A stretch of 64,000 bases of DNA, taken from assembly GCA_963810965.1 (NCBI GenBank), contig CAWEPT010000005.1, positions 12,244 through 76,243 on the forward strand. Direction: 5' to 3'. Made by a program: the position numbers and the translations under genes. This DNA comes from an uncultured delta proteobacterium. GTDB taxonomy: Bacteria; Desulfobacterota; Syntrophia; Syntrophales; UBA2192. Below the pieces are notes generated by a model that was given only the letters and a program-made list of their open reading frames with translations, had not been told where the DNA came from and searched no databases. Of the stretch, positions 1,485-62,358 are shown piece after piece. Within the stretch, counting starts at the first letter, position 1; each line of letters begins with the position of its first letter.

Positions 1485-1519
1485 AGCCCCTGAGCCCTGG
1501 ACCCTTGTCCCTAGTCCCT
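1485..1519 (-). repeat. tandem heptamer array, AGGGNNN x5 in - strand (mRNA) sense
   Basis: + strand reads agCCCCT gaGCCCT ggACCCT tgTCCCT agTCCCT. The stop codon of the 1511..3097 gene lies inside the array. A GC hairpin GCCGGGCG-gga-CGCCCGGC follows at 1462-1480. Confidence 0.8.
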
Positions 1520-3097
1520 ATGCTGTTTTTGTACGGGGCCCGCCAGGGCGGGGAAGGCAACCGTTTCCGATTCGCGGAAGGTGCCGATAAAGGCGTTGAC
1601 GACCTGCGGGTCGAACTGGCCGCCGCCGTTTCTGTGCAGCTCCGTTACCGCCTCGTCATGACTCATGCTCATCCGGTAGGGCCGGTTTGTCGTCATGGCG
1701 TCGTAGGCATCGGCCACGGCGATCAGGCGCGACAGCAGCGGGATCGCCTCGCCGGCCAGCCCGTCGGGGTAGCCGGAGCCGTCCCAGTTCTCGTGGTGGT
1801 GGCGGATGATCTTGCGCTCTTTTTCGAAAAGCGCGATCGGGGTGAGGATGTCATCGCCGATCGTGCTGTGGTTCTTGATGATGCCGTATTCCTCTCCCGT
1901 GAGCTCGTCGGGCTTGAGGAGGATGTGATCCGGGATCGCGATCTTGCCGATATCGTGGAGCATCGCGGCGATCTTGAGGCACTCGATGTCGTCGGGGGAG
2001 CATTGCATGATCTCGGCGGTCCGCACCACGAACTGCATGACGCTCTGGGAATGGCGTTCCGTGTACTGGTCCCGGGCCTGAATGGAGGTCACGAGCGCCC
2101 GGAAGGTTTCGGCGATATTCGTGTAGAGGGTCTCATAGAGGACCTTGTTTTCCAGGTTCAGCGAAGCGCGCCTCGCGAGGCTCAGGATGACGTGGAGGTC
2201 CTGATCCGAAAAACAGGCGCCGTTGCGGTCTTTCCAGAGGCCCAGGATCCCGAAGACGTTGTTGCGGATCATCAGAGGGGCGCAGAGGATGGACGCCGAG
2301 CCTTCAGCGTCGGAGACGTTGAACAGGACGCCGTCCCTTTTGCTCACGACCTCGCGGAGCAGCTCCTTCGGCCAGGGCATGGTGTGGCGCGGCGGGATCG
2401 GGTCGATGCAGCCGGTGATCTTGGGCAGGAACTCGTCGGTTTCCCTGTCGTAGAGCAGGATCGCGCAATGCTCCCCGTTCGAGACCTTGAGGGCCAGATC
2501 GGCGATGACGCGGAAGACGTTGTCGTTGCTCACCCCCAGGCGTTCGATGAAGTCGTAGATGAAGCCCGTGGCCGAGACCTGCCGGACCTTGTCGCGCAGC
2601 TTCTCCTGCTCCACCTTGTGCAGCAGGCCGTCGGCCGACAGGAGCGACTTCTCCCGCATGTAGATGTTCACCTTGTACAGAAGCTCGTCGATGCGGAAAG
2701 GCTTCGAGATGAAATCGACGGCCCCCGTCTTCATGGCCGAGACGGACAGGCCGACGGTGGGGTATCCGGTGATCATGATGACCGAGATCGTGGGGTGGAT
2801 CTCCCGGATCCGGCTCAGCAGATCCATGCCGTTCATGCCCGGCATCTGGATGTCGCTGATGACCAGATCGTAGAGATTGGACCGCAGCGCATCGAGGGCT
2901 TCCTTCCCGTCGGAAGCCTCGGTGGCGATGTAGTCGCCCTCGTGCCTCAGGGCCTCGACGATCAGGTTGCGTATGGATGCGTCGTCATCGACGACGAGGA
3001 TGGTCCTCTTATCGGACAAATTCGCGGGCATGACCCTGAATTCGTTCCTTGCGGTCTCCGTATCGTTCATTCCGATCATTCCGACAGCCCCACCCAT
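1511..3097 (-). CDS. response regulator, REC-GAF-HD-GYP (c-di-GMP phosphodiesterase type)
   Basis: Receiver (ILVVDDDASIRNLI...DLVISDIQMPGMNG), central GAF-like region, HD-GYP signature (MLHDIGK...HHENWDGSGYPDGL). The true start may be one of several downstream Met codons. Confidence 0.85.
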   Translation of the reverse strand: MGGAVGMIGMNDTETARNEFRVMPANLSDKRTILVVDDDASIRNLIVEALRHEGDYIATEASDGKEALDALRSNLYDLVISDIQMPGMNGMDLLSRIREIHPTISVIMITGYPTVGLSVSAMKTGAVDFISKPFRIDELLYKVNIYMREKSLLSADGLLHKVEQEKLRDKVRQVSATGFIYDFIERLGVSNDNVFRVIADLALKVSNGEHCAILLYDRETDEFLPKITGCIDPIPPRHTMPWPKELLREVVSKRDGVLFNVSDAEGSASILCAPLMIRNNVFGILGLWKDRNGACFSDQDLHVILSLARRASLNLENKVLYETLYTNIAETFRALVTSIQARDQYTERHSQSVMQFVVRTAEIMQCSPDDIECLKIAAMLHDIGKIAIPDHILLKPDELTGEEYGIIKNHSTIGDDILTPIALFEKERKIIRHHHENWDGSGYPDGLAGEAIPLLSRLIAVADAYDAMTTNRPYRMSMSHDEAVTELHRNGGGQFDPQVVNAFIGTFRESETVAFPALAGPVQKQHRD

Positions 3098-3263
3098 GGT
3101 TTCGGACTCATCGCGCGCACTGGAGGCAAAGGTGTGATTGCGGCCTTAGTCGGAGACGCAGACCGGCCACATGCGGGTTCGAACCAGACACACCGGGAAC
3201 ATGTGACAGGGGGCTTGCGGCCCCCTTCGGAACGGTCCCCCGCTCAGCGAATCGCGAAGGCAT

Positions 3264-3479
3264 CTATCTGGATTTATTGCCTTTCAGGATGACATCCATC
3301 AGGCTGTAGGAGATCTTGTCATAGACCTCCGGTTTTTCCTGCTCAGGGGACAGCGAGACCACGTCGGCGTACCTCGGGCCCGCCTTCTGGACATCCTGGG
3401 CCGCAGGTTGCGAGCCGACCTTGCTCTGCCGGCTGTAGGCCTTGAGGATATTGTCAATCTGATATGTGGATATGGTCAT
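3264..3479 (-). CDS. hypothetical small protein (71 aa)
   Basis: Only coherent ORF between the two regulators, same strand as and upstream of the HD-GYP gene. No family recognised. Confidence 0.35.
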   Translation of the reverse strand: MTISTYQIDNILKAYSRQSKVGSQPAAQDVQKAGPRYADVVSLSPEQEKPEVYDKISYSLMDVILKGNKSR

Positions 3480-3595
3480 CGTTCATCCCGTTGTTTTCTC
3501 ATAATGGAGATCGGTATCCGGTATGAAAACTTTAGGATTAGTTCCCTGTGGCCGGCCCGCCGCGGCTCGACAGGGGCTCCCGGAAATATTTATGG

Positions 3596-3623
3596 TTGAC
3601 TAATGAGGGAATTTTGTTAACAT
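3596..3623 (+). promoter_or_regulatory. sigma70-like promoter candidate
   Basis: TTGACT-N16-TAACAT, about 160 nt upstream of the 3783 start codon. Confidence 0.4.
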
Positions 3624-3782
3624 CCCGTGTTGCTTTACGTTCATACGATTCATCAGGCCCTTCCGACAGGAACCTTCCTGCCGATCAAAGACCTCATTTC
3701 CACCCGTCGGGGGGGCCGGGAATGACGCAACCACCTTTACCCGATTTCGTCCCATCCTCGAGGAGCGGCAAAACGACCAGCC

Positions 3783-5195: not shown

Positions 5196-5233
5196 TCTAT
5201 TCGTCCGGTCTATTCAGTCTGTTCCGTCTATTC
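5196..5233 (+). repeat. tandem array of TCTATTC-type units (reverse complement of the GGAATAGAC family)
   Basis: TCTATTC at 5196, 5209 and 5227, TCTGTTC at 5218. Begins 7 nt after the stop codon and is followed by a terminator. Confidence 0.7.
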
Positions 5234-5247
5234 CGTCGAAATTGGTG

Positions 5248-5276
5248 CCGGGGAGATTGCTCTCCCCGGTTTTTTT
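5248..5276 (+). terminator. rho-independent terminator
   Basis: CCGGGGAGA-ttgc-TCTCCCCGG followed by T7. Confidence 0.85.
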
Positions 5277-5413
5277 ATGCCTTGCGGCTTGTGGCTCGTG
5301 ACTTGTGTCCGCGAACGTCAATTTTTTGACAAGCCGCTTAAGTTTTCGGCCGCGTGATCGACGAGGCCGCATGTATACCCTCGCCCCCTTCCGCCGCCGT
5401 GCAGAAGCCCGAC

Positions 5414-5440
5414 ACGCTACCCGCTACCCGCTACCACGCT
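5414..5440 (+). repeat. tandem heptamer array CCGCTAC x4
   Basis: acgctac ccgctac ccgctac cacgct. Confidence 0.7.
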
Positions 5441-5450: not shown

Positions 5451-5488
5451 CCCTGTACCCTGTACCCTGTACCCTGAACCCTCTCCCC
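5451..5488 (+). repeat. tandem heptamer array CCCTGTA x5 abutting a sigma54 promoter
   Basis: ccctgta ccctgta ccctgta ccctgaa ccctctc. Ends 2-3 nt before TGGCAT. Confidence 0.85.
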
Positions 5489-5490: not shown

Positions 5491-5506
5491 TGGCATATCA
5501 CTTGCT
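5491..5506 (+). promoter_or_regulatory. sigma54 promoter (-24/-12)
   Basis: TGGCAT-atcac-TTGCT with GG-N10-GC spacing, 65 nt upstream of ATG 5571. Confidence 0.7.
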
Positions 5507-5570
5507 ATCCTCAGGTCAGGCGGTGGTGTGTCCATCGGACCACCTGTTATTCCGCACACCGAGACTGACC

Positions 5571-7814
5571 ATGAGAAAACACTGCATCGCCTGTCTGGCC
5601 GTCGTTCTGGTTCTTGTCTTTGCCACATCCGCAACCCCCGCCGGGAAGGCCGGTGCGGTGTACAGCCTTCACGTGGGATCCTACCCCAGCGCAGAAAAGG
5701 CCGCTGAGCAGGTCAAGACCCTGAAAGAAAAAGGCTGCGAGGCCTTCTCCGCAAAGCCGGAGGGCAGCGATGGGCGCTGGCGCGTCTTTGTCGGCCGGTA
5801 TGCAGGCGCCGATGAGGCGGCCCGCCAGGGCGCGCAGCTCGAGAAGAAAAAAATCGTCCGGTTCTATACCGTCCGAAAAGTCCCGGCCACGGCGGAGGCG
5901 AAAGATTCCGCAGGGACAGAGGGCAAGACGGCCGTGAAAGGGGCCCCTGTGCCGGAACCCCCGAAGGCGGACGTCGCAAGCCCAAAGCCTCTGCACCCCC
6001 AGGTAACGATCACGCCGGCTGCACCGGAGACCCCGTCGAAGAGGAAGAAGACCCCGCTCCATGCATCCGCGGAAAAGCGCCCCGGGAGCCTCACGGGCGA
6101 TTCGGTGACGGAAGGCCTGCCCGAGCCCGAACCCTTCAAGTTTCAGCCCTTCGATACGGGCAGTCAGGGGAAACCGGGCGGCAATGCCGGTGCCGGGCCC
6201 AAGGATGGCAGCCTGACCGAAGACGAGGCCCTCTATGCGGAAGCGGTGGAGCACTATCGAAAGGGCAGGTACCCCAAAGCGGTCGACACCTTCCGATCGT
6301 ACATCCAGCAGTATGCCGGCAAGCCCCGGTCGAAGGCCTCGTTTTTCTGGATCGCCGAATGCCACAGCCAGATGCAGGACCCGAAGAAGGCCGACGAAGC
6401 CTTCCGGGAGGCCCTCAAGCGCTGGCCCGACTACCGGGACGTCCCCCGGGAGGCCCTGGTCAGCCTGGGTTTCCATTTCTTCCGCCAGGGCGCCCATGAC
6501 CAGCTCATCGGGGCCTTCTCCTACTACGTCAACATCTACCCCGAGGACCCCTTCCGCAAGGAGATGCTCTACCTGATCGCCCGCTCGCTCACGGAGATGC
6601 AGCAGTACGAGCCGGCGCTCAAGGTCTTCAGCACCGTCATCGAGAAATATCCCGACACCAAGGAGGCCACGGAGAGCGCCATCATCATGGCCAACATCGG
6701 GGTGAAGAGCCCGGGGCTCAGGCTTCCCGCCTACATGACGGGCACCCAGTACTACAGGGACCCTGCGGCGACCTACGACATGGTCCTCTCGAAGCAGCTT
6801 CCGAGCCTGGAGATCACGGAACGGATCCTCTTCCAGAAGGCTTACGCCCTCTTGCAGGAAAAGCTCTACCGGCAGGCCTTTCAGGCGAGCCTCGCCCAGC
6901 TCAAGCGCTTCCCCAACGGGCGCTGCAAGGACGCGGGCCTGGCAACCCTCAAGGCGGCCACGGAGCGCCTCGTCGACGAGGACTACGGAAAGGCCGACTA
7001 CCTCCGCGTGGCCGACACCTACCTGACGGCCTACGAGGGCGCCTGGGTCAAGACCATCGACTTCGGGACGGGCATCAAGATCGCCGACAGCCTGCGCCAG
7101 ATCGGTCTGTACCGCGAGACGCGGCGGGTTGCCGAACATCTCCTGATGATCGAGAAGGACGGCAGAAACCGCAGGGCGCTGCTCGTGATGGTGGCGGACG
7201 TGAGCATCCGCGAGCGCCATTACGACGAAGCGGAGCGCATCGTCACGGAGCTCGCGAAGGAGACGGCAACGCTCGGCCGCGATGAGCGCCTTGCCCTGCG
7301 CCGGCTCCAGGGGGATCTCTACCTCAAGAAAGGCCTCTTCGAGAAGGCGGCCGCCGCCTACGCGGAGATGGCGGGCGAGGGCGCGGCCGACGCGGCCGCA
7401 CTGCACCGCAACTACGGGATTGCCCTTCGCTTCAGCGATGCCTGCCCGTCGGCCCTGCAGCAATTCCAGCTCGCCATCCGGCAGTCCGAGAAAAACAAGG
7501 CCGGCAACAGCCAGGTCCTCCAGGATTCGCTGGCAGGCGTCGGGGACTGTTACCTCAAGACACGGAAGTACCCGGAGGCCGTCACGGCCTACCGCCAGGC
7601 CGTCGATTCGGCCCAGAGCGGTGCGCAGAACCCCTGGACCCTCTACAACCTCGGCAAGGGGTACGTGGAGATGAGAAACCTCACCGAGGCAAACCGGGTC
7701 TTCTCGGAGCTGAAGGTGCGGACGGGGGACGACTTCTGGAACAAGACGATCGACTACACCCTCTCCGATGCCGCCTGGACGGAGAAATACCGGAAGTACC
7801 TTCCGGCGAAATAA
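5571..7814 (+). CDS. SPOR domain / TPR-repeat protein
   Basis: Track ORF 5490..7814; ATG 5571 lies downstream of the promoter. Signal/TM MRKHCIACLAVVLVLVFATSA, SPOR-like YSLHVGSYPSAEKAAEQVKTLKEKG...WRVFVGRY, Pro/Lys-rich linker, then many TPR-like repeats. Confidence 0.75.
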   Translation: MRKHCIACLAVVLVLVFATSATPAGKAGAVYSLHVGSYPSAEKAAEQVKTLKEKGCEAFSAKPEGSDGRWRVFVGRYAGADEAARQGAQLEKKKIVRFYTVRKVPATAEAKDSAGTEGKTAVKGAPVPEPPKADVASPKPLHPQVTITPAAPETPSKRKKTPLHASAEKRPGSLTGDSVTEGLPEPEPFKFQPFDTGSQGKPGGNAGAGPKDGSLTEDEALYAEAVEHYRKGRYPKAVDTFRSYIQQYAGKPRSKASFFWIAECHSQMQDPKKADEAFREALKRWPDYRDVPREALVSLGFHFFRQGAHDQLIGAFSYYVNIYPEDPFRKEMLYLIARSLTEMQQYEPALKVFSTVIEKYPDTKEATESAIIMANIGVKSPGLRLPAYMTGTQYYRDPAATYDMVLSKQLPSLEITERILFQKAYALLQEKLYRQAFQASLAQLKRFPNGRCKDAGLATLKAATERLVDEDYGKADYLRVADTYLTAYEGAWVKTIDFGTGIKIADSLRQIGLYRETRRVAEHLLMIEKDGRNRRALLVMVADVSIRERHYDEAERIVTELAKETATLGRDERLALRRLQGDLYLKKGLFEKAAAAYAEMAGEGAADAAALHRNYGIALRFSDACPSALQQFQLAIRQSEKNKAGNSQVLQDSLAGVGDCYLKTRKYPEAVTAYRQAVDSAQSGAQNPWTLYNLGKGYVEMRNLTEANRVFSELKVRTGDDFWNKTIDYTLSDAAWTEKYRKYLPAK

Positions 7815-7886
7815 GGGACATGCTGAAAGAAGACGCACAAGAAACCGGCCCGGCCGGAGAATCGGCCTGCCGGCGACATCCAGGTT

Positions 7887-9084
7887 TTGCAGCAATCCTT
7901 CGAGAGCTTCACGGCGGCCACGATGAAGCTCCAGGAGGCCTTCTCGAATCTCGAGATCAAGTTCGAGAACCTCAACCGCGAGCTCGAACAGAAGAACCGG
8001 CGTCTCGAGAGCATCATTGCCGAGAAGGACGAGATGCGCAACTACCTGGAAACCATCCTGGAGAGCCTGACGACAGGGGTCGTCGTGACGGATCTTCAGG
8101 GGCGCGTCACGATGATGAACGGCTGTGCCGCCCGCATCACCGGAATGGAGCCGGGCGCTGCGGATCGAGAGCTTGCCGATCTCTTCCGGGGAGCCGAGGA
8201 GATGGACCGGGGCCGGGCAGGCTCCGCCCCTTCCCGGTACCTGCAGGGCAAGCGCAAGATCCGCCTCGGGGACAGCATCCTCGAGGTCCTGACATCCCCC
8301 GTGAAAACAAAAGACGGCAACAGCCTGGGGACGGTCCACATCCTGCTCGACGTGACCCGCGTCGAGAAGCTCGAGGAGATGGCCAAGCGCACCGAAAAAT
8401 TTGCCGCCCTCGGCGAGATGGCGGCCAATATCGCCCACGAAGTCCGCAACCCCCTGGGGAGCATCTCGCTGTCGGCCTCGCTTCTCCTCAAGGGCCTTGC
8501 CGACGAGAAGAACCGGGACCGGGCCGCGCGGATCATCCACTCCGTGAAGAGCGTCGACAACAAGATCGCGAACCTGCTGCTGTTCACCCGAAAGCCGGAG
8601 CCCCAGTTCCGGGATCTGCGGATCCACGACGTCCTTCAGGACATCCTCCGGTTTTCCGTGGAGATCCTGGAGAAGGAGGGAATCCGGCTCACCGTGCGCC
8701 TGGCAGGCGGCAGACCCGCTCGTGCGGGCCGACGGGGAGCTTCTGAAACAGGTGTTCCTCAACATCATCCTCAATGCCGTGCAGGCCATGCGGGGCGGCG
8801 GTGAGCTCACCATCGAGACCCGCCTGCACAACGACCCGGCGCTGAGGCCGGGCATGGAACGGAGCCTCGAGCTTCGCTTTGCCGACACGGGTTCCGGGAT
8901 TGCCGAGGAGGATCGCAGGCGGATCTTCGACCCCTTCTTCAGCACGAGGGAAAGGGGCAGCGGCCTGGGGCTCGCCATCGTGCACAACATCATGGATCTG
9001 CACCGCGGGACGGTCGATGTGGAGATGGGCGAGAAGGGCGGGAGCGTGTTTACCGTGCTGCTGCCGCTTGTGGAACCTGAATGA
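7887..9084 (+). pseudogene. PAS sensor histidine kinase (FlrB/FleS-like), frame-broken
   Basis: Fragments 7887..8804 and 8722..9084. H-box FAALGEMAANIAHEVRNPLGSI. ATPase boxes (LNIILNAVQA, DTGSGI, GSGLGLAIV) continue in the +1 frame. There is an extra base near 8712 (GGCGGC-A-GACCCG). Confidence 0.8.
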
Positions 9085-10543: not shown

Positions 10544-10589
10544 ACAGCCAAGTAACAGCCAACAGCCAACAGCAACAATCCCACAGCTC
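10544..10589 (+). repeat. tandem heptamer array ACAGCCA x6
   Basis: acagcca (agta) acagcca acagcca acagcaa caatccc acagctc. Starts 5 nt after the stop codon. Confidence 0.8.
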
Positions 10590-13737: not shown

Positions 13738-13770
13738 CCTGAACCCTGAACCCTTAACCCTGAACCCTGG
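13738..13770 (+). repeat. tandem heptamer array GAACCCT x4 (inverted relative to 13661-13695)
   Basis: gaaccct gaaccct taaccct gaaccct. Lies between the fliF stop and the fliG start. Confidence 0.85.
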
Positions 13771-13777
13771 TTGTATT

Positions 13778-15460: not shown

Positions 15461-15497
15461 CAGTGATCGAGTGACGAGTGACCAGTGAATGATGAAA
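15461..15497 (+). repeat. tandem heptamer array (G/C)AGTGAC-type x5
   Basis: cagtgat cgagtgac gagtgac cagtgaa tgatgaa. Confidence 0.7.
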
Positions 15498-15595: not shown

Positions 15596-15600
15596 CCCGC

Positions 15601-19695: not shown

Positions 19696-19700
19696 TTCCA

Positions 19701-28260: not shown

Positions 28261-28274
28261 GCGCCGAACGGCGC

Positions 28275-50580: not shown

Positions 50581-50997
50581 ATGGCACTGAGAATCGAACT
50601 GAAGCCGCGCGAGCGGTTCATCCTGGGGGGCGCCGTTCTGCAGAACGGCGATGCGAGATCGGAATTGATCCTCGAGAACAACGTTCCGATCCTCAGGGGG
50701 AAGAATATCCTGAGCCTCGAGGAGGCCGACACCCCCTGCAAGCGCATCTATTTCCTCATTCAGCTCATGTACGTGGAAGGCGGCAATCTCGCGGGGCATC
50801 AGGACACCTACTGGGCCCTGGTCCGCGACATCGTCGAGGCGGCGCCCAGCATGCTCGGCCTCATCGACGCCATCAACGAACACCTCGTCGGCGGCCGTTA
50901 CTACGAGGCCCTCAAGCTGACCCGGAAACTCATCAACGAAGAGGAGAGGTTAATCCAACATGCAGACTCAGGTGCAGGCTTACCAGAACACCCATAA
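50581..50997 (+). CDS. flbT: flagellin synthesis repressor FlbT
   Basis: MALRIELKPRERFILGGAVLQNGDARSELILENNVPILRGKNIL...TPCKRIYFLIQLMYV closely parallels Caulobacter FlbT. Confidence 0.85.
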   Translation: MALRIELKPRERFILGGAVLQNGDARSELILENNVPILRGKNILSLEEADTPCKRIYFLIQLMYVEGGNLAGHQDTYWALVRDIVEAAPSMLGLIDAINEHLVGGRYYEALKLTRKLINEEERLIQHADSGAGLPEHP

Positions 50998-51346
50998 GAT
51001 GGTGATGTCGGATCGTGAAGTGGAGGCGGCGGTCCTCACGAAGGGGGCGCTGATGCTCCGCAACTGCCAGGAGAACTGGACGAGCGGCGGAAACAACGGC
51101 ATGCTCGACGAGGCCCTCCGGTACAACCAGCTCGTCTGGAGCATCTTCCAGGGGGAGATCACCCGGAAGGACCACCCGATGCCTGTGGAGCTGCGGCAGA
51201 AGATCCTGACGCTCAGCCGGTTCATCGACCGGCGCATCTTCGAGGTCATGGCCTATCCCCACTCCGGAAAGCTCAACGCCATCATCAATATCAACCTCAA
51301 CCTGGCCGCCGGACTGAGAGGGTCGTCCGGGGTCGAGGAGGACTGA
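50960..51346 (+). CDS. flaF: flagellar biosynthesis regulator FlaF
   Basis: QAYQNT...DEALRYNQLVWSIFQGEI...PVELRQKILTLSRFIDRRIFEVM matches the FlaF pattern. Overlaps the flbT 3' end. Confidence 0.8.
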   Translation: MQTQVQAYQNTHKMVMSDREVEAAVLTKGALMLRNCQENWTSGGNNGMLDEALRYNQLVWSIFQGEITRKDHPMPVELRQKILTLSRFIDRRIFEVMAYPHSGKLNAIININLNLAAGLRGSSGVEED

Positions 51347-54073: not shown

Positions 54074-57000
54074 TTGACGGTTCCGTCCTTGGACCCGTTG
54101 TCGACGAAGATGATCTCATGGGGCTCCGGCGTGTGCCTCCGGATGCTCTCGACGCACTTCTTCGTGTACTCGAGCTCGTTGAACGTGAGGATGACGATGG
54201 ACGTGAGAGCGCGTTCCGGACGATCCGGTAAGGAGTTCGACTGATCCTTGGGCTCACGAGACTCGCGAATATCGAGCAACCGATCGTATACCCGGGCATA
54301 ATCTTCGATATTCTCTTCCATCGTCTTGAGGCGGGAATCCCGAAGGTTTGCTGCGACCCTTTCGAGCCGCGTTGGATCGTCCAGAATTTCCAGGAGCCTA
54401 GCCGCGAGGGCCTTGGCGTTTCCGGGAGGGACGAGAAATCCGGTCTCGCCGTCGACGATTCTCTCGCTGATTGCTCCGCAATCGGAAGCGATGACGGGGA
54501 TGCCCATCATCTGCGATTCGCTTGCGGTCAGGCAGAATGTCTCGTCCCATACGGACGGAATCATGACCAGGTGTGTCTTGGACAGCAGTCGCGGAAGATC
54601 GCTGCGTTCATAGAATCCGTGCTGGATGATGCCGAGTTCATTTGCTGTTTTCGTCAGTGAGGGGGGCACGCCGCCGAAAATCTCGAGTCGTATGGGCTTT
54701 CCCTTGAGAATCTTCGCCGCTTGCAGAAGAACGAAAACGCCTTTTCTGTCGCTTGCATTTCCGAGGAAACCCACCCTGAGAACGTTTCCGCGTTTCGCCT
54801 GCTGGCTCTTCTGCAGGGGTTCGATCCCGTGGGGAACGGTGACGATCCTGTCTTTTATCTCCTCTCCATGGGCCTGGATGAACCGTTCGCGCACAAAATC
54901 AGACGGGGCGACCAGGATGTCCGCCGCTTCGATGACGCGCTTGATAATTTGCTTTCGTTCGGCTAAGTAATCCCGCAGTAGCGACGGTTTGCCGGCCCCG
55001 TGATATTTGCGCTTTGTGCCGAGACAATACAGGCATTCGGCGTCTTCGCCGTCCGCAATGGTTTTCCCGCAGCGCCTCAGGTTCGGGAGGATCAAATTGT
55101 AATCGGGGCAGAGCAGGTAGTAATCGTGAAGAGAAATCAAGACCTTGAGGCCTTGATCCTTTGCGATGAGCGGCAGGAGCATGGAGCTCCAGCCGCCGAG
55201 ATGCTGGAAGTGAACGATTGAGGGACGACAGCCCCGCAGGAAGTTCGAAAAGATGGTTTCTACGTACTCGTTTGTCAAGTCTCCGTATATCTCGAGGAAG
55301 GAGTCGGTTACCACGACGGTCTCCTTGCGCAGCTTCAAGACGCGGAGATATCCGTTTACTTCCTTAGCCGCAAGATCGACCCACTGCTCGGGCAGGGATG
55401 CCGGGAACAAAACCGTGCTGTGAAACCGTGAAGACAGACCATCAATAATGTTTCGCGTGTGCAGTTCGGTGCCCCCCGGAGCATCAAAATTGTGAAGGAC
55501 GTGAAGCACGCCCGGCAAAAGAGGGTTTTCGAGCTCTTTGACTTTCCTGAAAATCCGTTCCTGGATCTCCCTTAAAGGATTGATGCAACAGAACCTGTAT
55601 ATTTCTTCCTTGTAGTTCGGCCATTTCTGTTCGAGCAGGCGCTCATTCAATTTGCGTTTTTCGCTGATCCGCGTGATGCTGCCGAAGGAAGCCTCCCCGT
55701 AGTGGTGAACATAGGCGTCGTCACAGCAGACGATCTTTTTCCCGGCATCCCGGGCGCGCATGCAGAAATCATTCTCCTCCCCGTAACCGAGGCCGAATGC
55801 GGGATCAAATGCGCCGGCGTTGTGCAGCGTGTCCCTCGAGATCAACATGCAGAATCCTACGCCGGTCGGGATCTCCGGGTAGGTTCTGCGCGACACCTCT
55901 GCGATCAGGGAACCGAAGCGATTCGTGTCTATCCCCTCCGGGAGAGTATTTGACTGGTTCATGACAGGGACGGAAAGAATCGTCGCATTGTTCGAAAGGG
56001 GGCACACGATGCCGATGTCCGGATGGCTGTTGAGGCAGCGGTGCATTCTGTCGAGCCAACCCTTTGTAACCTCCGTGTCGGAATTGAGAATGACGACGTC
56101 ATTTTCAGACAGTTCGAAACCGCGATTGACGTTGTGGACGAATCCTTTGTTTACGGAGGATTCGATCAGGCGGACCCTTGGATCTGCTTTCTCGAATGAT
56201 TTGAGTAGCGGCAGAACGCGGGAATCCGTGCTGCTGTCATCAAGCAGGTAGATGGCATGGTTGCCCTGCGTGTGGCGGAGAACACTGTCGATGCACCGCT
56301 GGAGATGCTCGAAAGCATTGAAGATCGGGATCAGAATGTCGCAGGACCTGTCAGGCGGGGCGACGTAATCCCCCGAAGCGTTGTTGGTCTTCGAACGCAT
56401 CGCGATCGATTTTATCCGGGAGGAAAGGAACGCGTCCACGCGATCCCTGATCTCTCGATCCGATCCCCCGGTCGGACTGCTGTTCCCTGATCGAGACGCA
56501 TCAGCACGGGAAACGTGCCGGGTTGTGTCGAACGTGCCGGACCCTTCATCTGTCAAGGGCCGAGGGGTGCACGTTGGAATCGATGCATCTTCTGCGGCTG
56601 CTTCAGGATTGGAAGGCGATGATTGTTCCTCTGCCATGCGCTGCAGAACCGAGAGGTTCTCTTCGGCTTGGGCATGACCTGGTGCGATGGACAGCACCCT
56701 GCCGTAGAAGAATCGCGCGTGGTCGAACTGTTTTTGCGTGGAGCAGATGTTTCCGATCCGAAGAAGCGTATCAACGTCATCCGGCTCGAGAGTGAGAGCC
56801 TTGTTGTAGTGGTTGAGCGCACGTTCGATGTCTCCTGTCTCCGCAAGGTACGCGTCGGCGAGGTCTCTGACGAAACGCAATACATCGGGCTGGAGTTGAA
56901 CGGCCCTATCAAGATGGAACAAGGCCTTTTCGATTTCTTTTTCCAGGCAATAAAGGTTCCCCAAATCGTTGTGAGCCCGGGCCTCTTCTGGATGGAGATC

Positions 57001-57174
57001 GAAGCAGGGTCTCGAGATTCTCGATTGCCCTGTCTGTCCGGCCGCGTCGCGCCAGAGACCTGGCCACTCGAACCAAGGCCTCGGGGTCGCGTTTATCCGA
57101 CACCTTTCCCTGCTCCTCCAAAGCGTCGAACATCTTTGCGGCGAGTTCATTCGCAGAATCGATTTCGAGGACAC
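53929..57174 (-). CDS. TPR - GT2 - GT4 - GT2(N-part) multidomain glycosyltransferase segment
   Basis: GT2 CDILIPIFNAFEHLQRCIDSVL..LLDDSSTD..ILNSDTEV. GT4 FLGNASDRKGV..IPSVWDETFCLTASESQMMGIPVIASDCGAISERIVDGETGFLV. Second GT2 start TSIVILTFNELEYTKKCVESI..FVDNGSKDGT. Both ends continue into the neighbouring track ORFs after a frame shift. Confidence 0.8.
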   Translation of the reverse strand: MSSKSILRMNSPQRCSTLWRSRERCRINATPRPWFEWPGLWRDAAGQTGQSRISRPCFDLHPEEARAHNDLGNLYCLEKEIEKALFHLDRAVQLQPDVLRFVRDLADAYLAETGDIERALNHYNKALTLEPDDVDTLLRIGNICSTQKQFDHARFFYGRVLSIAPGHAQAEENLSVLQRMAEEQSSPSNPEAAAEDASIPTCTPRPLTDEGSGTFDTTRHVSRADASRSGNSSPTGGSDREIRDRVDAFLSSRIKSIAMRSKTNNASGDYVAPPDRSCDILIPIFNAFEHLQRCIDSVLRHTQGNHAIYLLDDSSTDSRVLPLLKSFEKADPRVRLIESSVNKGFVHNVNRGFELSENDVVILNSDTEVTKGWLDRMHRCLNSHPDIGIVCPLSNNATILSVPVMNQSNTLPEGIDTNRFGSLIAEVSRRTYPEIPTGVGFCMLISRDTLHNAGAFDPAFGLGYGEENDFCMRARDAGKKIVCCDDAYVHHYGEASFGSITRISEKRKLNERLLEQKWPNYKEEIYRFCCINPLREIQERIFRKVKELENPLLPGVLHVLHNFDAPGGTELHTRNIIDGLSSRFHSTVLFPASLPEQWVDLAAKEVNGYLRVLKLRKETVVVTDSFLEIYGDLTNEYVETIFSNFLRGCRPSIVHFQHLGGWSSMLLPLIAKDQGLKVLISLHDYYLLCPDYNLILPNLRRCGKTIADGEDAECLYCLGTKRKYHGAGKPSLLRDYLAERKQIIKRVIEAADILVAPSDFVRERFIQAHGEEIKDRIVTVPHGIEPLQKSQQAKRGNVLRVGFLGNASDRKGVFVLLQAAKILKGKPIRLEIFGGVPPSLTKTANELGIIQHGFYERSDLPRLLSKTHLVMIPSVWDETFCLTASESQMMGIPVIASDCGAISERIVDGETGFLVPPGNAKALAARLLEILDDPTRLERVAANLRDSRLKTMEENIEDYARVYDRLLDIRESREPKDQSNSLPDRPERALTSIVILTFNELEYTKKCVESIRRHTPEPHEIIFVDNGSKDGTVKWLKELVKENPATNSSKTARTSASRKAATKASRPPRATISSFSTTMSS

Positions 57175-58279
57175 TCAGGTAACACTCGTGTGCCTTGGTG
57201 AAGTCTCCGGATTCTACCCGAATATTTCCTAAGGTCAGGAGGGTCTCCGTGTCCTGGGGATTGATCGACAGGGCCCGTTCATAATGTCGCACTGCCTCTT
57301 CGGGCCGTTTCATTGCCACGTAGCAGAAATCGGCCAGGTTTTTCCGGAACGTTGCATTTTCGGGATCGAGGGAAACGGACTTTTCGCAGGCGGCCAAGGC
57401 TTTCTCGGCGTTTCCCTGCTTGCCGTAGAGGACCCCGAGGTCATTGTATGCGGGGGCATAGTCCGGGAAAGACTCCACCAGCCGTTCGAGAGCGAAAGCG
57501 GCCTCTGCACGCTTTCCCTCGGTGACGAACAGTTTGATGATGCTCTCATGGGGCTCGACTGCTGGATGACTCTCGTGTGCGGATCGTGATTCCTGTGCCT
57601 CTGTGCAAATCTTGCCAGCGTCGTGATATTCTTTGCCCCGTTCAGCAACAATGGCATATGCCTCTTTCATTTTCTGCTGTTGTCCGGATGTCATCGTTGA
57701 GCCATCCTGACGCCAGGATACTGAACATGTCACAAGGGGAATATGCGCAAACTGGAAAATGCGGGACATTCGCATCCAAAGATCCCAATCTTCCAGTGAT
57801 TGAAGCGTCTCGTCAAAAAGACCCACGTTATCCAGACAGCTTCTTCTGTGCATGACGCACAGGACAGGAATAAAGTTTTCTCTCAAAATTCGCTCGTAAT
57901 CGAATTCAAACGAATAGGGCACTTCCTTCTTTATCGTGACGTATTTTCCATTTCGCATTTCCTGATATGTGCGATGAGCGTCGGTATAGGCAACTTGGTA
58001 TTCGGTCGATTCCAGGAAATTGACAAGGGTTTCGAGATGGTCGGGATAAAAAAGGTCGTCATCATCCAGATATGCAATATATTTTCCGCGCGCCGCCTTG
58101 ATCCCCTTATTGCGCGCCGCCGGAAGTCCCCGGTTGGTGTCGTGTTGCAGGCATCTAATGTTGTCGTTAGTGAGCCCCTCGAAGAGTTGACGAACGTCTG
58201 ATCCACCGTCGTTGATAACGATGACTTCATAGTATTGATAGGTCTGGCCAAAAATGCTTTTCAGGGCATTCATGAGCAT
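56909..58279 (-). CDS. GT2 - TPR segment (continuous with 53929..57174 after a frame shift)
   Basis: MLMNALKSIFGQTYQYYEVIVINDGGSD...YLDDDDLFYPDHLE, then TPR repeats. The N-terminal IVPTYNRPD is in the adjoining frame. Confidence 0.8.
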   Translation of the reverse strand: MLMNALKSIFGQTYQYYEVIVINDGGSDVRQLFEGLTNDNIRCLQHDTNRGLPAARNKGIKAARGKYIAYLDDDDLFYPDHLETLVNFLESTEYQVAYTDAHRTYQEMRNGKYVTIKKEVPYSFEFDYERILRENFIPVLCVMHRRSCLDNVGLFDETLQSLEDWDLWMRMSRIFQFAHIPLVTCSVSWRQDGSTMTSGQQQKMKEAYAIVAERGKEYHDAGKICTEAQESRSAHESHPAVEPHESIIKLFVTEGKRAEAAFALERLVESFPDYAPAYNDLGVLYGKQGNAEKALAACEKSVSLDPENATFRKNLADFCYVAMKRPEEAVRHYERALSINPQDTETLLTLGNIRVESGDFTKAHECYLSVLEIDSANELAAKMFDALEEQGKVSDKRDPEALVRVARSLARRGRTDRAIENLETLLRSPSRRGPGSQRFGEPLLPGKRNRKGLVPS

Positions 58280-59030
58280 ATCAGGACGGTTGTAGGTCGG
58301 GACAATAAGGAGACAAGTGGATTTTCACCGGAAATCGAGTATTTTTTCTGCGCTCTTTGTGCGGCAAGGGCACGCATGGCGTAATGCCGCTGTTCCGTTC
58401 CCTTCTTGCTGGAAATTGAGCATGGGCGTGATCTCCAATAGACGAGAGGCTCTCCTATGTTTGCAAGTTTGAATTTTTCAGACATTCTGAGAAACAGGTC
58501 ATAATCATGGCTGTAGTGATATCCTCGTCATACCCGCTAAGCGCCTCCAAAGCATCTTTCCGAATCATTACGGTGCTGTGGCCAAACCAGTTCTGGTCCA
58601 ATAATCGTTCCTGGATGGCATCACTGTCCGTTAGGACGTCGACGATCCGTTGAACTTCATGTATCGTCGATTTCGTGATAGGAGCTACCGACAAGAGCCA
58701 ATCCGGATGCGTTCAAGGATTCGAGATCTGTTTCAAGACGATGGGGCAGGGAAACGTCATCGGCATCCATAATCGCGATGTAGGTGCCCCGTCGCAGCTG
58801 CAGGGCTTTGTTTCGCGACTCCGGCGGGTCCAGAATTCTCGGGGTTCGTGAAAATCTTGATTCTCGGATCGTCAGCAGGCTGAGGATCCGGCGGTTTCAT
58901 CCGTTGACGCGTCATCAACGACGAGCAGTCGAAATTCGGGTACGTCTGTTTCAGGATGCTATGAATGGCTTCTTGAGAGAGGAAGCTCCGCATTGTGCGC
59001 AGCCATGATCACGCTGACAGCCGGGGATTC
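58270..59030 (-). pseudogene. GT2 glycosyltransferase segment, multiple frame breaks
   Basis: VSVIMAAHNAE, SQEAIHSILKQTYPNF, DDPRIKIFTNPENSGPA, GTYIAIMDADD and MIRKDALEALSGYDEDI are found in three different frames. No stop separates it from the next GT2. Confidence 0.6.
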
Positions 59031-59039
59031 CGGATGAAA

Positions 59040-60269
59040 GGGGATGGCGGCGTCCCAGGAATTCTGGTAATAACTTCCGCACCCTGGCATTGTGTCCTTT
59101 CAGGTAAACCAATCCACGATCATCGATGAATTCGTATAAATTCACGGTCGATGACATGCCGATAGAGTTTGCTGCTTGGAATGCCCACGAAAACGTTCTG
59201 CCAGGTCATGGTGGGCTTGATTTCCGAAAGGAGGGCGTCCGTTGCGGCGAGGTCTTCTTCGGTCTCCTGAGGGAGGCCGACCACGATACTGGCGGCGGTC
59301 TTGAAGCCGATTTCGTTGCAGAGCCTGAAGCTTGTTCTGATCTGGTCGACGGTGATCCCTTTGTGGAGTTCATCCAGGATTCTCTGAGAGCCGCTTTCAA
59401 CGCCGAAGTAAAATCCTCGAGCACCTGCCTTGTGCATCAGCTCGAGGAGTTCCCTGTCGAGGCTGTCGACACGGGACTCGCAGGCCCAACGGATATCGAT
59501 GTGTCTCTCCATCAGAAGCTTGCAGAATTCGACCACCCGCTTCCGATCAAGCGTGAAGTTGTCCTCGCGGAAGTAGATGCCTTTTGCCCCGTAGCGTTCG
59601 ACGAGATGCTCAATGTCGGAGACGATTCGCGCGGCACTGAAGCTCGTGTATTGTTTCCCCAGACTGCGCCGACGGAGCAAAACGCACAGCGGAAGGGACA
59701 GCCTCGGCTTGTCGTCATCGTGAACGTGGGCTTTTCGGGAAACCACAGCGCCTCCCAGTTATACGGGAGTTTCGTAAAGAGGTCCCAGGCCGGCATGGGG
59801 AGAGCGTCGAGGTCACGGATACGGGGGTATCGAACGACACGATCCTTGACCTTCCCTTCCACGATGTCGACGATCGCCTGTTCGCCCTCGCCTTGGACGA
59901 CGTGGTCGACGAAAGCCGGAATGGTGTCGAGGGCAACCGTGGTGTGCGGTCCCCCCACAATAATTTTCCCGTGCCATTGACCGCAACGCCTCAGATGTTC
60001 GATCTTATAGAGCATCCGTTGAGTGTCGCGAAAACAGATCGTGCTGACATAGATGCCGACATAATCGATACCGTTTGCCTGCAGATAACCCGATTCGAGA
60101 AAATTGCTGGGCCCCAGATAATTGTCGATGAAAAACACGTCATGCCCTGCTTTCTGAGCATCGAAAGAAGGAAACCGACGCCGAGCGGAGGTTTCTTTTC
60201 CCAGGTCGAAAAGGGGGTTTGCGAAGGAGCCGCAGACGTAACGAGGAGCACTCTTTTGCTGACTTTCAT
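59040..60269 (-). pseudogene. B12-binding radical SAM enzyme, at least 3 frame breaks (3' end uncertain)
   Basis: ATG 60269 (MKVSKRVLLVTSA...). B12-binding-like N-domain. TSRGCPFRCAFCSV cluster motif. Continues as ..QYTSFSAARIVSDIEHLVERYGAKGIYFREDNF in another frame (missing base in a G-run at ~59665). Confidence 0.75.
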
Positions 60270-60608
60270 TGGGCTATTATCCTTGGCTTTACAATGTGTT
60301 AGAAGAGTCACACCCATGCCCGCCATGAAGGTCCCGCATTCCGGCACTGCGACTTCGCTGAAGCGATTTCAGAAACGCAGAACATCCGCCGACTAGGGTA
60401 AACGTCCGATATTTTGCACGTTATGTGCCAGCGGGGGCGCTGCGAGTGAGCCTGCCCGTAGGGCTGCTCCCTGCAGTCTGCCATGGCGAAGGAACTGGCG
60501 GATCAGACGCTGCCTGCATATGCGAGGGCGTGAGGGTGTAAGGATATCCGCCGTGCATCCGCAAAGACGGATGGGCAGCAGAGCATCAGGTTGCAGATCG
60601 ATCGTTTG

Positions 60609-61334: not shown

Positions 61335-61393
61335 GAGCTTGACCGGTGAACCGCTGCCCGGCCGGTTTCAGGACCGGATGGGGCGCCTCCCTG

Positions 61394-61409
61394 TGGCACA
61401 GAATGTGCT
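61394..61409 (+). promoter_or_regulatory. sigma54 promoter candidate of the GGDEF gene
   Basis: TGGCAC-agaat-GTGCT with GG-N10-GC spacing, 59 nt upstream of ATG 61468. Confidence 0.6.
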
Positions 61410-61467
61410 AATCTCTTATCGGTAATCATGAAGGACAACTTGAGCCGGGGAAGGGCACGAAACAATC

Positions 61468-62181
61468 ATGGATGACGGGGAAGGCGGCAGGGCAGAACTG
61501 AACTTCGACGAAAAGAGCTTCCTCTTCGAGTGGCTCGTCGAGAACAACAAGACACTTACCCGGAAGAACAAGGAGCTCCTGGTCGAGAGCCTGAGGCTTC
61601 GCTCCCGGGTGGAGGAGCTGGAAAAGATCAACTTCGTCGACCCGACGACGGGTCTTCACAACCGCTGGTACCTGCAGCCCCGCCTCGAGGAGGAATTCTC
61701 GCGGGCGAGGCGGGCGGGCTCGTCCCTTTCGTGCCTTTTCATCGATATCGACCACTTCAAGGCCGTCAATGACCAATACGGTCACTTCATCGGTGACAGG
61801 GTTCTCCGGGACACGGCCACCCTGCTGAGGGGTCTTTGCCGCAGGGAGGATGTGCTGGTCCGATTCGGCGCCGACGAGTTTGTCATTCTGCTGGGCAACG
61901 CAGGGCAGAGAGCGGCAAAGACGGCGGCCGAGCGCATCCGGGGCCGCCTCGAGGCTCACTCATTCCACTGCGGGGAGCAGGAGAAAACCCTCTCGGCCAG
62001 CATCGGGGTGAGCACCCTTAAAAAGGAACACGTGGCCTCATCGACAGACCCCTGGGAGCTTGTCTGGACGGCTGACGGGGCCATGCATCTGGCCAAACAG
62101 AAAGGGCCCGGCCAGATTCACCGGCTCGACTGCAACGGCCAGGGGTACAAGCCGGCCGAATCGGAGCATGCAGCCTCGTGA
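61468..62181 (+). CDS. GGDEF-domain protein (GADEF variant, I-site present)
   Basis: Coiled-coil N-terminus. TGLHNRWYL...FIDIDHFKAVNDQYGHFIGD...RREDVLVRFGADEFVILL. Confidence 0.85.
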   Translation: MDDGEGGRAELNFDEKSFLFEWLVENNKTLTRKNKELLVESLRLRSRVEELEKINFVDPTTGLHNRWYLQPRLEEEFSRARRAGSSLSCLFIDIDHFKAVNDQYGHFIGDRVLRDTATLLRGLCRREDVLVRFGADEFVILLGNAGQRAAKTAAERIRGRLEAHSFHCGEQEKTLSASIGVSTLKKEHVASSTDPWELVWTADGAMHLAKQKGPGQIHRLDCNGQGYKPAESEHAAS

Positions 62182-62212
62182 AGAAGCGTGTAGGGTGTAG
62201 CGTGTAGGTTTA
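62181..62212 (+). repeat. short tandem array GTGTAGG x3-4
   Basis: gaagaagc gtgtaggg tgtagc gtgtaggt, starting at the stop codon. Confidence 0.6.
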
Positions 62213-62310
62213 CAACCTTATTGTTATTCTTCATTTATTTTATTCTCCTCTGCATCCCGCAACCATAGCTCCTGTTTTAACAATCCTGTTGCCAGTTCCA
62301 TCTTGTCCTT

Positions 62311-62358
62311 CCTCGAACCTCGATCTTCGGTCCTCGGTCCTCGTTTCTTCGTTCCCTG
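62311..62358 (+). repeat. tandem heptamer array CCTCGNN x6-7 abutting a sigma28 promoter
   Basis: cctcgaa cctcgat cttcggt cctcggt cctcgtt tcttcgt tccctgt. Reverse complement of the CGAGG family at 28484. Confidence 0.8.

Follow-up and report, generated by a model that had tools for sequence, protein, structure and literature searches.

Introduction

Why should the spacers of a flagellar gene cluster be filled with tandem copies of units only seven to nine nucleotides (nt) long, and do such repeats serve the flagellum at all? The question is raised by a stretch of 64,000 nt from an uncultured Syntrophales bacterium, hereafter the window, to the full length of which all of its coordinates refer. 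Pfam scans confirm a flagellar cluster in it, with two sigma-54 activator genes, flgBC, fliEFGHIJ, fliK, flgDE, fliLMNOPQR, flhBAF, a MinD-like gene, fliA and flgFGAHI, and with the late genes flgMNKL, flagellins and flbT/flaF. An earlier note on this DNA had counted about 30 arrays of short units in the spacers and had taken them to structure a flagellar regulon. Judged by sequence, the arrays, of which AGGGTNN is the main unit, belong to the class of the STRR repeats of cyanobacteria and the G-rich heptameric, quadruplex-type repeats of Xanthomonas and Nostoc. The explanation that we favor, with moderate confidence, is a lineage-specific bloom of slippage-prone dispersed heptamer repeats, the orientation of which has been filtered by selection on transcripts and a minority of which has been co-opted.

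Arrays were called with Tandem Repeats Finder (TRF) at a period of 6-10, at least 2.8 copies (the detection floor for copy number) and a score of at least 30, and 30 dinucleotide-preserving shuffles of the window served as the null model. Relatives were gathered by an FlhB-centred scan with one genome per species, and the matches were uncultured Syntrophaceae or Syntrophales. Eleven of them (L001-L011, hereafter the close relatives) have FlhB at least 79% identical, and L012 onward form a graded series of more distant genomes. A non-flagellar sample of about 100 kb of DNA (L201, L202 and L204-L206) was reached via a small DUF4136-like protein encoded at the edge of the window.

Abundance and Placement of the Arrays

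TRF reports 26 arrays in the window against 0.90 +/- 0.87 in the shuffles (maximum 3), and non-coding DNA, which makes up approximately 9.8 kb or about 15% of the window, holds 22 of the 26 where 0.17 would be expected. Three of the four coding calls are weak 6-, 8- and 9-mers at chance level, and the fourth (13659-13692) lies in the 3' tail of the fliF frame as assembled. Direct reading at all 29 coordinates listed earlier shows 3-6 head-to-tail units of 7-9 nt, and the figure of about 30 arrays stands, with approximately 31 counted when six more degenerate ones are included. Those at 1485, 24346, 28521, 29703, 35814 and 42820 are too short or too degenerate for the TRF threshold and are seen at a lower threshold or as runs of G-tracts. 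When the window and the close relatives are taken together there are 113 arrays, 10 coding and 103 non-coding, which agrees with the intergenic location first described for the window. The period is 7 in 80 of the 103 non-coding arrays, the copy number has a median of 4.1 and a modal bin of 3.5-4.5, and the typical length is about 30 nt.

The arrays are unevenly distributed along the window. Among spacers of at least 30 nt, 18 of 28 at 1.0-42.9 kb hold an array against 1 of 10 at 43-64 kb; the unevenness that the earlier note reported is therefore real, and its wording that nearly every spacer of the first part is occupied is too strong. This per-spacer contrast is stronger than the per-base count, yet it is based on one window. 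We gave no meaning to the absence of arrays from the late-gene spacers at 43-51 kb, which amount to only about 670 nt with approximately 2.7 arrays expected by our own estimate. The worry that the arrays are an artefact of one assembly is not borne out, since genomes that were assembled independently, with different assemblers to judge by their contig names, have them at orthologous places.

Orientation of the Arrays

Arrays within 25 nt of a stop codon carry more G than C on the sense strand in 40 of 46 cases, against 19 of 53 for the others (Fisher P = 1.7e-7; window and close relatives), a count in which orthologous spacers do not stand for independent observations; the window by itself shows only a trend (10:3 versus 3:6, P = 0.08). 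The strand rule proposed earlier, in which the G-rich strand is the sense strand after stop codons and the pyrimidine-rich strand ahead of promoters, thus holds when the relatives are included. C-rich arrays end 3-16 nt 5' of the start codons of flhB, flhA and fliG, and 1-13 nt 5' of the -24 boxes of sigma-54 promoters, notably those of fliK, flgF and a SPOR-TPR gene. The first 10 nt of the 3' flank of the G-rich strand are 42-45% A in both orientation classes. All of this can be put as a single rule: the G-rich strand has its 5' head next to the closest gene or promoter, and its A-rich 3' tail faces into the spacer. It follows that mRNA is G/purine-rich just past stop codons and C-rich just ahead of starts and promoters, and a spacer with two arrays would read as a G arm followed by a C arm no matter which strand is read or how the flanking genes are oriented. 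The observation that some arrays run into the start regions of fliI, fliM, flgG and the open reading frame (ORF) at 35475 was also confirmed.

A role of stop-adjacent arrays as fail-safe stops in all three frames was considered and rejected. All-frame stops occur in 15 of the 46 and no stops in 12, a bimodal count which is due to the period of 7 and not to a general function.

Turnover and Copying of Arrays among Relatives

Array density is 2.8-8.1 per 10 kb in the close relatives and approximately at background from L012 onward. Gene order is kept among the relatives, and in the close relatives orthologous spacers are occupied by arrays at matching positions, with other units and other copy numbers. 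Eight of them have orthologous arrays at the fliQ site, built of AGGGTTC, AGGGTGT, AGGGTAC or GGGCTAA, and the units 3' of fliL2 are AGGGTAA or AAGGCTA. The corresponding spacers of the outgroups are short and free of arrays, and they carry ribosome-binding sites of the GGAGG type. With arrays in the close relatives and short, array-free spacers in the outgroups, the arrays are, as far as these genomes tell, a clade-restricted expansion of spacers.

The closest species pairs show how single arrays change. Indels that touch arrays measure 6, 7, 7, 7, 21 and 21 nt between L002 and L003, and 6, 7 and 21 nt between L005 and L007, mostly one or three units, and substitution identity in arrays equals that in the rest of the spacer (0.89 versus 0.90 and 0.92 versus 0.91, respectively). 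Both features fit near-neutral evolution with slippage. Something beyond local slippage is needed, however, because inverted matches between non-orthologous spacers indicate that arrays have been copied from spacer to spacer. An array of variant octamers at 18940-18981 of L001 recurs inverted in a different spacer of L011 (14576-14535) with 41 of 42 nt identical, and the window array at 24423-24464 recurs inverted at 5208 with 93% identity over 30 nt. The array beside the GGDEF gene (62188-62208) matches an array in the fliL-fliM spacer of L010 over 27 nt at 93% identity. The arrays at 28482 and 62310, which had been assigned to the CGAGG family and its complement, both hold GATCGAGGTTCGAGG and CGAGGACCGAGGA in differing order on direct reading; BLAST with 28482-28555 reported no match at 62310.

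Two further observations concern the relatives. Octamer arrays of the type GAAGATCG/GAAGAGCG are present in L001 (11127-11155 and 18944-18977), L004 (18827-18855) and L011 (~14535-14576), and within them lies AGATCGGAAGAGC, which we take to be the first 13 nt of the Illumina TruSeq adapter. Adapter contamination was rejected and the match is taken as coincidence, given that it stops after 13 nt and that the arrays are at orthologous sites in independent assemblies. In addition, the fliL-fliM spacers of L001 (~5500-5700) and L004 (~5690-5900) contain an insertion of about 190 nt with CCCTCTCCCTTGAGGGGAGAGGGTCAGGGTGAGGG-type hairpins at both ends, which resembles a miniature inverted-repeat element and is missing from the window and the other relatives.

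Arrays outside Flagellar Loci

The non-flagellar sample bears directly on whether the arrays belong to motility. In L204, 20.6 kb of sequence contain six intergenic arrays, the neighbours of which are Crp, ferredoxin, MFS and RND genes; among the six are an AGGGT/ACCCT pair on either side of an intrinsic terminator and a hairpin pair located between genes that converge. Three arrays were counted in L205 and a single one in L202; L201 and L206 had none. Genes on the minus strand in L204 and L205 obey the same strand rule, and in the window itself arrays also adjoin HD-GYP, GGDEF and response-regulator genes. The view that the arrays structure a flagellar regulon finds no support when AGGGT/ACCCT arrays with the same rule stand beside transporter, Crp and ferredoxin genes, and in this sample the elements appear not to be flagellar-specific.

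When metagenomes were scanned with AGGGTNN x4, telomere repeats of eukaryote type (AGGGTTT) made up most of the matches, and almost no context for the clade was gained. Three prokaryote-like contigs from unrelated metagenomes (L082, L101 and L162) have 6-7 different heptamer arrays each, including the inverted pairs CAAAATG/TTTGCAT and TAGGGTA/TACCCTA, so a multi-family, paired organisation recurs in other lineages.

Known Classes of Heptamer Repeats

The earlier note knew of no description of such arrays; the class was already in print. In Xanthomonas (unit GGGAATC) and Nostoc (unit GGGGAYT), Rehm et al. (2015; PMC4692102) had found repeats that favor non-coding DNA and arrays of four units, and the G-rich strand of which is the coding strand within 50 bp after stops and the non-coding strand within 50 bp upstream of ORFs. 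Some of those repeats overlap stop codons, inverted pairs occur, no link to gene function class was found, two Xanthomonas species share intergenic positions while length and sequence vary, and repeat oligonucleotides form quadruplexes in vitro (Rehm et al., 2015; PMC4692102). The present arrays agree with this class in every structural property that could be tested: they are tandem units, of 7 nt in 80 of 103, with a GGG or CCC run in the unit in 58 of the 103 non-coding arrays, and they share the non-coding bias, the number of about four units, the strand and position rule, the overlap with stops, the inverted pairs and the variation between species. As regards gene class, arrays of the relatives stand beside transporter, redox and signalling genes, and they are denser in flagellar loci. 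The differences lie in the unit, which here is AGGGTNN with two variable positions, in companion families without G-tracts (AAGGCTA, GAAGCTAA, GGAATAGAC, CAGTGAC and AACAGCC), and in the host, an uncultured anaerobic Syntrophales clade. Arrays placed 1-13 nt 5' of -24 boxes, loss of the Shine-Dalgarno sequence at flhB and fliG, the A-rich tail, and the higher density in early and middle flagellar operons are not reported for the class of Rehm and co-workers.

The STRR units of heterocystous cyanobacteria, reportedly described by Mazel et al. in 1990, are said to be CCCCAGT, TTGGTCA and CAACAGT. The comparison with them that was made at the outset is apt in kind: several heptamer families coexist, and they are tandem, intergenic, dispersed over the genome and restricted to a lineage. 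It does not extend to the family, since the window units differ from the STRR units and the phylum is another. We rejected homology of the units themselves, because AACAGCC matches STRR3 and GTGACCA matches STRR2 at 6 of 7 positions, and about 0.85 such matches would be expected by chance by our own estimate. Three Calothrix heptanucleotides are mentioned by Rehm et al. (PMC4692102).

Other published repeats are similar in part. MacGregor (2015; PMC4679880) described TAACTGA direct repeats in marine Beggiatoaceae, cyanobacteria and Bacteroidetes, for which a translational role was proposed; like the present arrays these are heptamer direct repeats, in 2-6 copies, a few nt 5' of starts in spacers without canonical ribosome-binding sites, and unlike them they consist of a single A/T-rich unit mainly 5' of starts, with no G-rich class after stops described (PMC4679880). 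According to the summary in PMC4679880, Mrazek et al. (2007) saw that in most prokaryotic genomes no long simple repeats are as frequent as those of heptanucleotides, and they proposed polymerase slippage as the cause. In Geobacter metallireducens, Aklujkar et al. (2009; PMC2700814) listed the multicopy elements GGACCGG x4, MTYCTGA x5, GTTGCTYN x4 and TCTCCGTS x3, for which they proposed sites of global regulators (IHF/HU) or RNA elements, without tests. That organism is likewise a metal- or syntrophy-associated member of the former deltaproteobacteria, and its elements resemble ours in having 3-5 tandem units of 7-9 nt in many copies that are mostly intergenic, often as opposite-strand pairs at variable distance. 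They differ in their units, and the GGACCGG family is also found within genes.

Finally, the enterobacterial REP/BIME sequences are abundant extragenic elements after stops in transcribed spacers, which alternate in orientation and are dispersed by copying, and they can form hairpins that influence how stable the mRNA is and how the gene upstream is translated. Each REP is one imperfect palindrome, 20-40 nt long, that RAYT transposases mobilise, whereas the arrays here are direct tandem units of 7-9 nt with no known transposase link, and they are palindromic only where two inverted arrays meet.

A Probable Bloom of Repeats Filtered by Selection

A lineage-specific bloom would proceed as follows. 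Units would be gained and lost by replication slippage, to which the unit-sized indels between the closest species point, and variants would spread along an array by concerted evolution, as we infer from the change of whole arrays between species. Whole arrays are copied to other spacers in either orientation, as the match of 41/42 nt between non-orthologous spacers shows. A period of 7 or 8 nt shifts the frame and many units hold stops, so that spacers and the very 3' ends of genes are the only places where arrays persist. The orientation pattern would reflect selection on transcripts, in which G-rich RNA that is Shine-Dalgarno-like or quadruplex-prone may not be tolerated in long 5' leaders, and in which C-rich, G-poor naked RNA right after a stop within an operon would load Rho. 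Most arrays would then be near-neutral filler that expanded the spacers. The co-opted minority may comprise the spacer of fixed length 5' of the fliK sigma-54 promoter, the C-rich leaders of flhB and fliG that are free of a Shine-Dalgarno sequence, and the pairs of G arm and C arm that appear able to close a whole spacer into a long hairpin.

Several points weigh against this account. The selective filter, whether Rho loading or harm from G-rich leaders, is something that we infer. Pure near-neutrality sits badly with two observations: the array at the fliK promoter has a conserved length, and ACCCTGA arrays have persisted 5' of flhB and flhA in relatives whose FlhB is only about 80% identical. 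Nor does local slippage account for the dominance of the AGGGT core in many spacers, which calls for copying or a sequence-specific process. Early and middle flagellar operons (18/28 spacers) are more densely occupied than the rest of the window (1/10), and flagellar loci more densely than the non-flagellar loci of relatives (8 of about 89 spacers, by our own count), and a model of general genomic filler does not predict such unevenness; the sampled non-flagellar relatives may belong to lineages with different repeat loads.

Paired Arms and RNA-Level Functions

Dedicated functions as RNA stems, as quadruplexes or in DNA architecture are possible on the sequence evidence. The first of these would make the arrays elements of polycistronic flagellar mRNAs, in which a G arm 3' of a stop pairs with a C arm 5' of the next start and closes the spacer into a long stem; stop and start would be brought together, which could couple translation or provide a site of RNase III processing or stability, and unpaired C-rich arrays would be unstructured leaders for Shine-Dalgarno-independent initiation. 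G arms begin 0-20 nt from stops and C arms end 3-16 nt from starts. In predicted folds of the window the arms 13659-13692 and 13738-13769 pair at 26 of 32 positions (13655-13775, z = -9.9), and the arms 39364-39403 and 39577-39614 at 35 of 38 (39360-39620, z = -7.3). With eight further two-arm spacers in relatives (z = -3.5 to -7.6), 10 of 11 such spacers have arm-to-arm minimum-energy folds at z = -3.5 to -9.9; the eleventh, the fliR-flhB pair of the window (28270-28560), pairs arm to arm at 21 of 32 positions and yet is no stabler than shuffles (z = -0.7). Arms match within species and differ between species, as in the flhF spacer with GAAGGTAA/ACCTTCTT in L004 and GAAGAGCG/GCTCTTCC in L011, and the flhF-stop site is a two-armed hairpin in L001, L003, L004 and L011.

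Shine-Dalgarno sequences have been lost at both fliG and flhB, where the duplex with the anti-Shine-Dalgarno sequence reaches -2.6 and 0.0 kcal/mol, respectively, against -5.3 to -12 kcal/mol for most genes, and the flhB leader has ACCCTGA arrays in relatives and GGAGG in outgroups. The suggestion made earlier that array units serve as Shine-Dalgarno-like standby sites gains a little from their pairing with the anti-Shine-Dalgarno sequence at approximately -3 to -6 kcal/mol. Strong mimicry was rejected, as real sites reach -7 to -12 kcal/mol.

Against a stem function, most arrays are solitary and the partners are not conserved: the fliR-flhB arms are complementary in L004, L007 and L010 and not in the window, L001 and L011. 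Arrays evolve as fast as the surrounding spacer, matching arms could stem from the copying of a palindromic element or from template switching, and a search of the 64 kb window against Rfam 15 gave no match at gathering score. We regard dedicated RNA elements as unlikely.

A more inclusive proposal is that the repeats were domesticated as an orientation-specific cis-regulatory grammar for sigma-54 flagellar operons, which would combine C-rich spacers of fixed length at -24 boxes, C-rich arrays replacing the Shine-Dalgarno sequence at flhB and fliG, and stems bridging stop and start. If it were true, flhB and fliG would have an unusual mode of initiation, and the stems would couple or gate the translation of neighbouring cistrons. 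We consider this grammar quite unlikely.

It is equally improbable in our judgement that the arrays act as G-quadruplex elements, in which (GGGN4)n would fold in mRNA 3' of stops, or in the template DNA strand 5' of promoters and starts, and modulate transcription, translation or mRNA decay. Canonical motifs number 17 in the window, where shuffles give 7.4 +/- 2.8. The 8.7 kb of non-coding DNA hold 13 of the 17 (0.35 expected), and about ten of these 13 coincide with listed heptamer arrays. Four to five units are typical of an array, and quadruplex formation in vitro is known for related repeats (Rehm et al., 2015; PMC4692102). However, 45 of the 103 non-coding arrays have no GGG/CCC run and are of the same median length (30 nt) with 3.9 versus 4.35 copies, and quadruplex-capable AGGGTAC arrays are exchanged at orthologous sites for incapable AGGCTAA or AAGGCAA, so that quadruplex capacity is not what is conserved.

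Sigma-54 Promoters and DNA-Level Functions

Sigma-54 boxes of the window include those at 5491, 10755, 19701, 28361 and 39621. Upstream of fliK, seven species keep 68-70 nt between a conserved anchor and the -24 box of the promoter, although the unit has been wholly replaced (CCCTGGT, CCCGATA, TGCCTGA, ACCCTGT and others), and the constancy of this distance indicates that the array is constrained in length. The outgroup L012 has A/T-rich DNA at the site. One could thus regard the arrays as architectural sites at the level of DNA, that is, platforms for a nucleoid-associated or regulatory protein, or spacers which fix how far apart, and in what helical phase, enhancer sites and sigma-54 promoters lie. 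C-rich arrays do end 1-13 nt 5' of the -24 box at three promoters of the window and at their orthologues, the fliK-promoter array keeps its length while its sequence changes, the head-to-gene geometry is symmetric on both strands as for a feature of double-stranded DNA, and similar repeats of Geobacter metallireducens were proposed as IHF/HU-type sites (PMC2700814). Yet the units are too varied between arrays and species for one sequence-specific protein, an array adjoins only 3 of the approximately 7 sigma-54 promoters of the window, and many arrays fill short intercistronic spacers in which no promoter is expected. Such an architectural role is, in our assessment, very unlikely as a general account.

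Some neighbouring features of these promoters may be recorded. The fliK-promoter array (L011, L005 and window 19650-19700) is flanked on both sides by direct repeats of CTTCTTCC or CTTCC, which may have arisen by target-site duplication or may have seeded the array. Palindromes adjoin sigma-54 boxes in the flgE-fliL spacer (GTCAAATTGTTGAC, ~23495-23510) and in the fliR-flhB spacer (TTGACGTCAGCGTCA, ~28425-28445); they are kept even in the distant, array-free relatives L015, L022 and L027, and are probably binding sites for an enhancer-binding protein.

Upstream heptanucleotide repeats act as phase-variation switches at the hmw adhesin genes of Haemophilus influenzae. That slippage in copy number would likewise reversibly tune or switch the neighbouring flagellar genes seems extremely unlikely, for although unit-sized indels occur between close species and arrays lie between promoters or stops and starts, the window arrays are short (3-6 units) and imperfect, which implies low slippage rates, they flank many gene classes including housekeeping-type genes, their length is fixed at the fliK promoter, and Rehm et al. 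(PMC4692102) likewise concluded against phase variation for their repeats.

Inventory and Other Features of the Window

The arrays of the window are collected in Table 1 together with six genes that are each split into two overlapping frames: fliF, flgD, flgE, flhA, a PAS-HisKA kinase gene and the second flagellin gene. The splits of flgD, flgE and flhA, which lie within the alignment to the close relative L001, are single-base indels relative to it. The split genes suggest an error-prone (perhaps long-read) assembly, or may be pseudogenes.

Table 1. Tandem arrays and split genes of the window, with strand, repeat unit and setting.
Feature	Position	Strand	Unit and copies	Setting	Basis
Array	1485-1519	-	five units, NNCCCTN on + / AGGGNNN on -	overlaps stop codon (ORF end 1511) of - strand response-regulator/GAF/HD-GYP gene	TRF 1502-1520; G-tract run on - strand 1495-1518; direct reading
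Array	5208-5237	-	GTCTATTCC x3.3 (9-mer)	18 nt 3' of sigma-54 activator stop, just 5' of intrinsic terminator 5247-5270	TRF
Array	5281-5307	+	CTTGTGG x3.9	between terminator and promoter	TRF
Array	5415-5440	-	CGCTACC x3.6	sense strand C-rich	TRF
Array	5451-5482	-	CCCTGTA x4.6	ends 8 nt 5' of sigma-54 box TGGCATATCACTTGCT at 5491	TRF
Array	10554-10577	-	AACAGCC x3.6	14 nt 3' of second sigma-54 activator stop, ~180 nt 5' of flgB sigma-54 box 10755	TRF
Array	13659-13692	+	ACAGGGT x4.9	G-rich arm; in 3' tail of fliF frame as assembled, well past end of Pfam match	TRF
Array	13738-13769	-	CCTGAAC x4.6	C-rich arm; ends 8 nt 5' of fliG ATG	TRF
Array	15462-15488	+	AGTGACG x3.7	15 nt 3' of fliH stop	TRF
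Array	15558-15597	+	CGGAATAGAC-type 9-10-mers	runs into fliI start codon 15601	TRF, direct reading
Array	19662-19694	-	CCCTGGT x4.7	ends 6 nt 5' of fliK sigma-54 box 19701	TRF
Array	24350-24368	+	AGGCTACA x2.4	directly 3' of fliL stop; orthologous AAGGCTA/AAGGCAA arrays in relatives	TRF
Array	24423-24464	+	GACGGAATA x4.7 (9-mer)	ends 7 nt 5' of fliM ATG; position kept in L001-L011	TRF
Array	27399-27434	+	AGGGNNN x5	begins within fliQ stop codon	TRF, G-tract run
Array	28276-28307	+	GGGTACA x4.6	15 nt 3' of fliR stop	TRF
Array	28482-28513	+	AGGATCG/CGAGG x4.6		TRF
Array	28521-28555	-	CACTNNN x5	ends 4 nt 5' of flhB ATG	direct reading
Array	29703-29733	-	about four NACCCNN units	ends 13 nt 5' of flhA ATG 29747; kept in 9 relatives	reading; G-tract run on - strand 29707-29730
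Array	33000-33033	+	GAAGCTAA x4.2 (8-mer)	7 nt 3' of flhF stop	TRF
Array	35434-35465	+	AGGGTAA x4.6	fills 46 nt spacer between fliL2 and 35475 ORF; units differ in relatives	TRF, G-tract run
Array	35818-35836	+	AGAAGGGT x2.4 (8-mer)	directly 3' of 35475 ORF stop; longer in L001, L003, L004; absent in L002	TRF
Array	36724-36753	+	CAGGGTA x4.1	2 nt 3' of stop codon; AGGCTAC/AGGCTAA there in L001, L003	TRF
Array	37264-37291	+	CAGTGAC x3.9	14 nt 3' of stop codon	TRF
Array	39364-39403	+	CAGGGTA x5.7	G-rich arm; overlaps stop of FlhB-C-domain-like gene	TRF, G-tract run
Array	39577-39614	-	CCTGTAC x5.6	C-rich arm; ends 6 nt 5' of flgF sigma-54 box 39621	TRF
Array	40390-40421	+	AGGCAAA/AAGGCTA x4.4	fills flgF-flgG spacer up to Shine-Dalgarno sequence	TRF, reading
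Array	42820-42854	+	GGGTNNN x5	12 nt 3' of flgH stop	reading; G-tract run 42820-42845
Array	62188-62208	+	GTGTAGG x3.0	6 nt 3' of GGDEF gene stop (not a flagellar structural gene)	TRF
Array	62310-62343	-	TCCTCGA x4.9	sense strand C-rich; 119 nt 5' of response-regulator gene	TRF
Split fliF	12080-13737
Split flgD	21136-21834
Split flgE	21875-23418
Split flhA	29747-31817
Split PAS-HisKA kinase gene	7820-8804
Split second flagellin gene	49762-50576

Only two intrinsic terminators were convincing in the scan of the window (5247-5270 and 44872-44886), other counts being at the level of shuffles. A sigma-28-type promoter lies 5' of flgM, and a similar box is seen by eye 5' of the flagellin gene at 48737. 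According to the Pfam scans the window also holds GGDEF, response-regulator and CheW genes and a block of glycosyltransferase genes. This block consists of three large glycosyltransferase-TPR genes on the minus strand (51416-58279), the GC content of which at third codon positions is 0.56-0.69 against 0.8-0.9 elsewhere, and is probably an acquired island for flagellin glycosylation. It is followed by about 2.3 kb with poor coding signal around a radical-SAM gene (58280-60608). Two companions are odd in a flagellar cluster of Syntrophales: a stand-alone gene for the FlhB C-terminal domain alone (38991-39371), and the genes of FlbT/FlaF (50581-51346), flagellin regulators that are known mainly from Alphaproteobacteria.

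Implications

Intergenic heptamer repeats have been known since about 1990 from the STRR sequences, and their strand rule since 2015. The Syntrophales clade adds a third, independent lineage with the same geometry, available for comparative work on an old class of repeats, and its graded series of genomes allows gain, unit turnover, copying between spacers and conservation of length to be traced at orthologous sites. That the same geometry is found in Gammaproteobacteria, Cyanobacteria and Syntrophales suggests a constraint of a general kind, for example from Rho, polymerase slippage or the coupling of transcription and translation, and speaks against a lineage-specific regulator. For the annotation of such genomes, the lesson is that heptamer arrays should not be taken as the sign of a special flagellar regulatory system.

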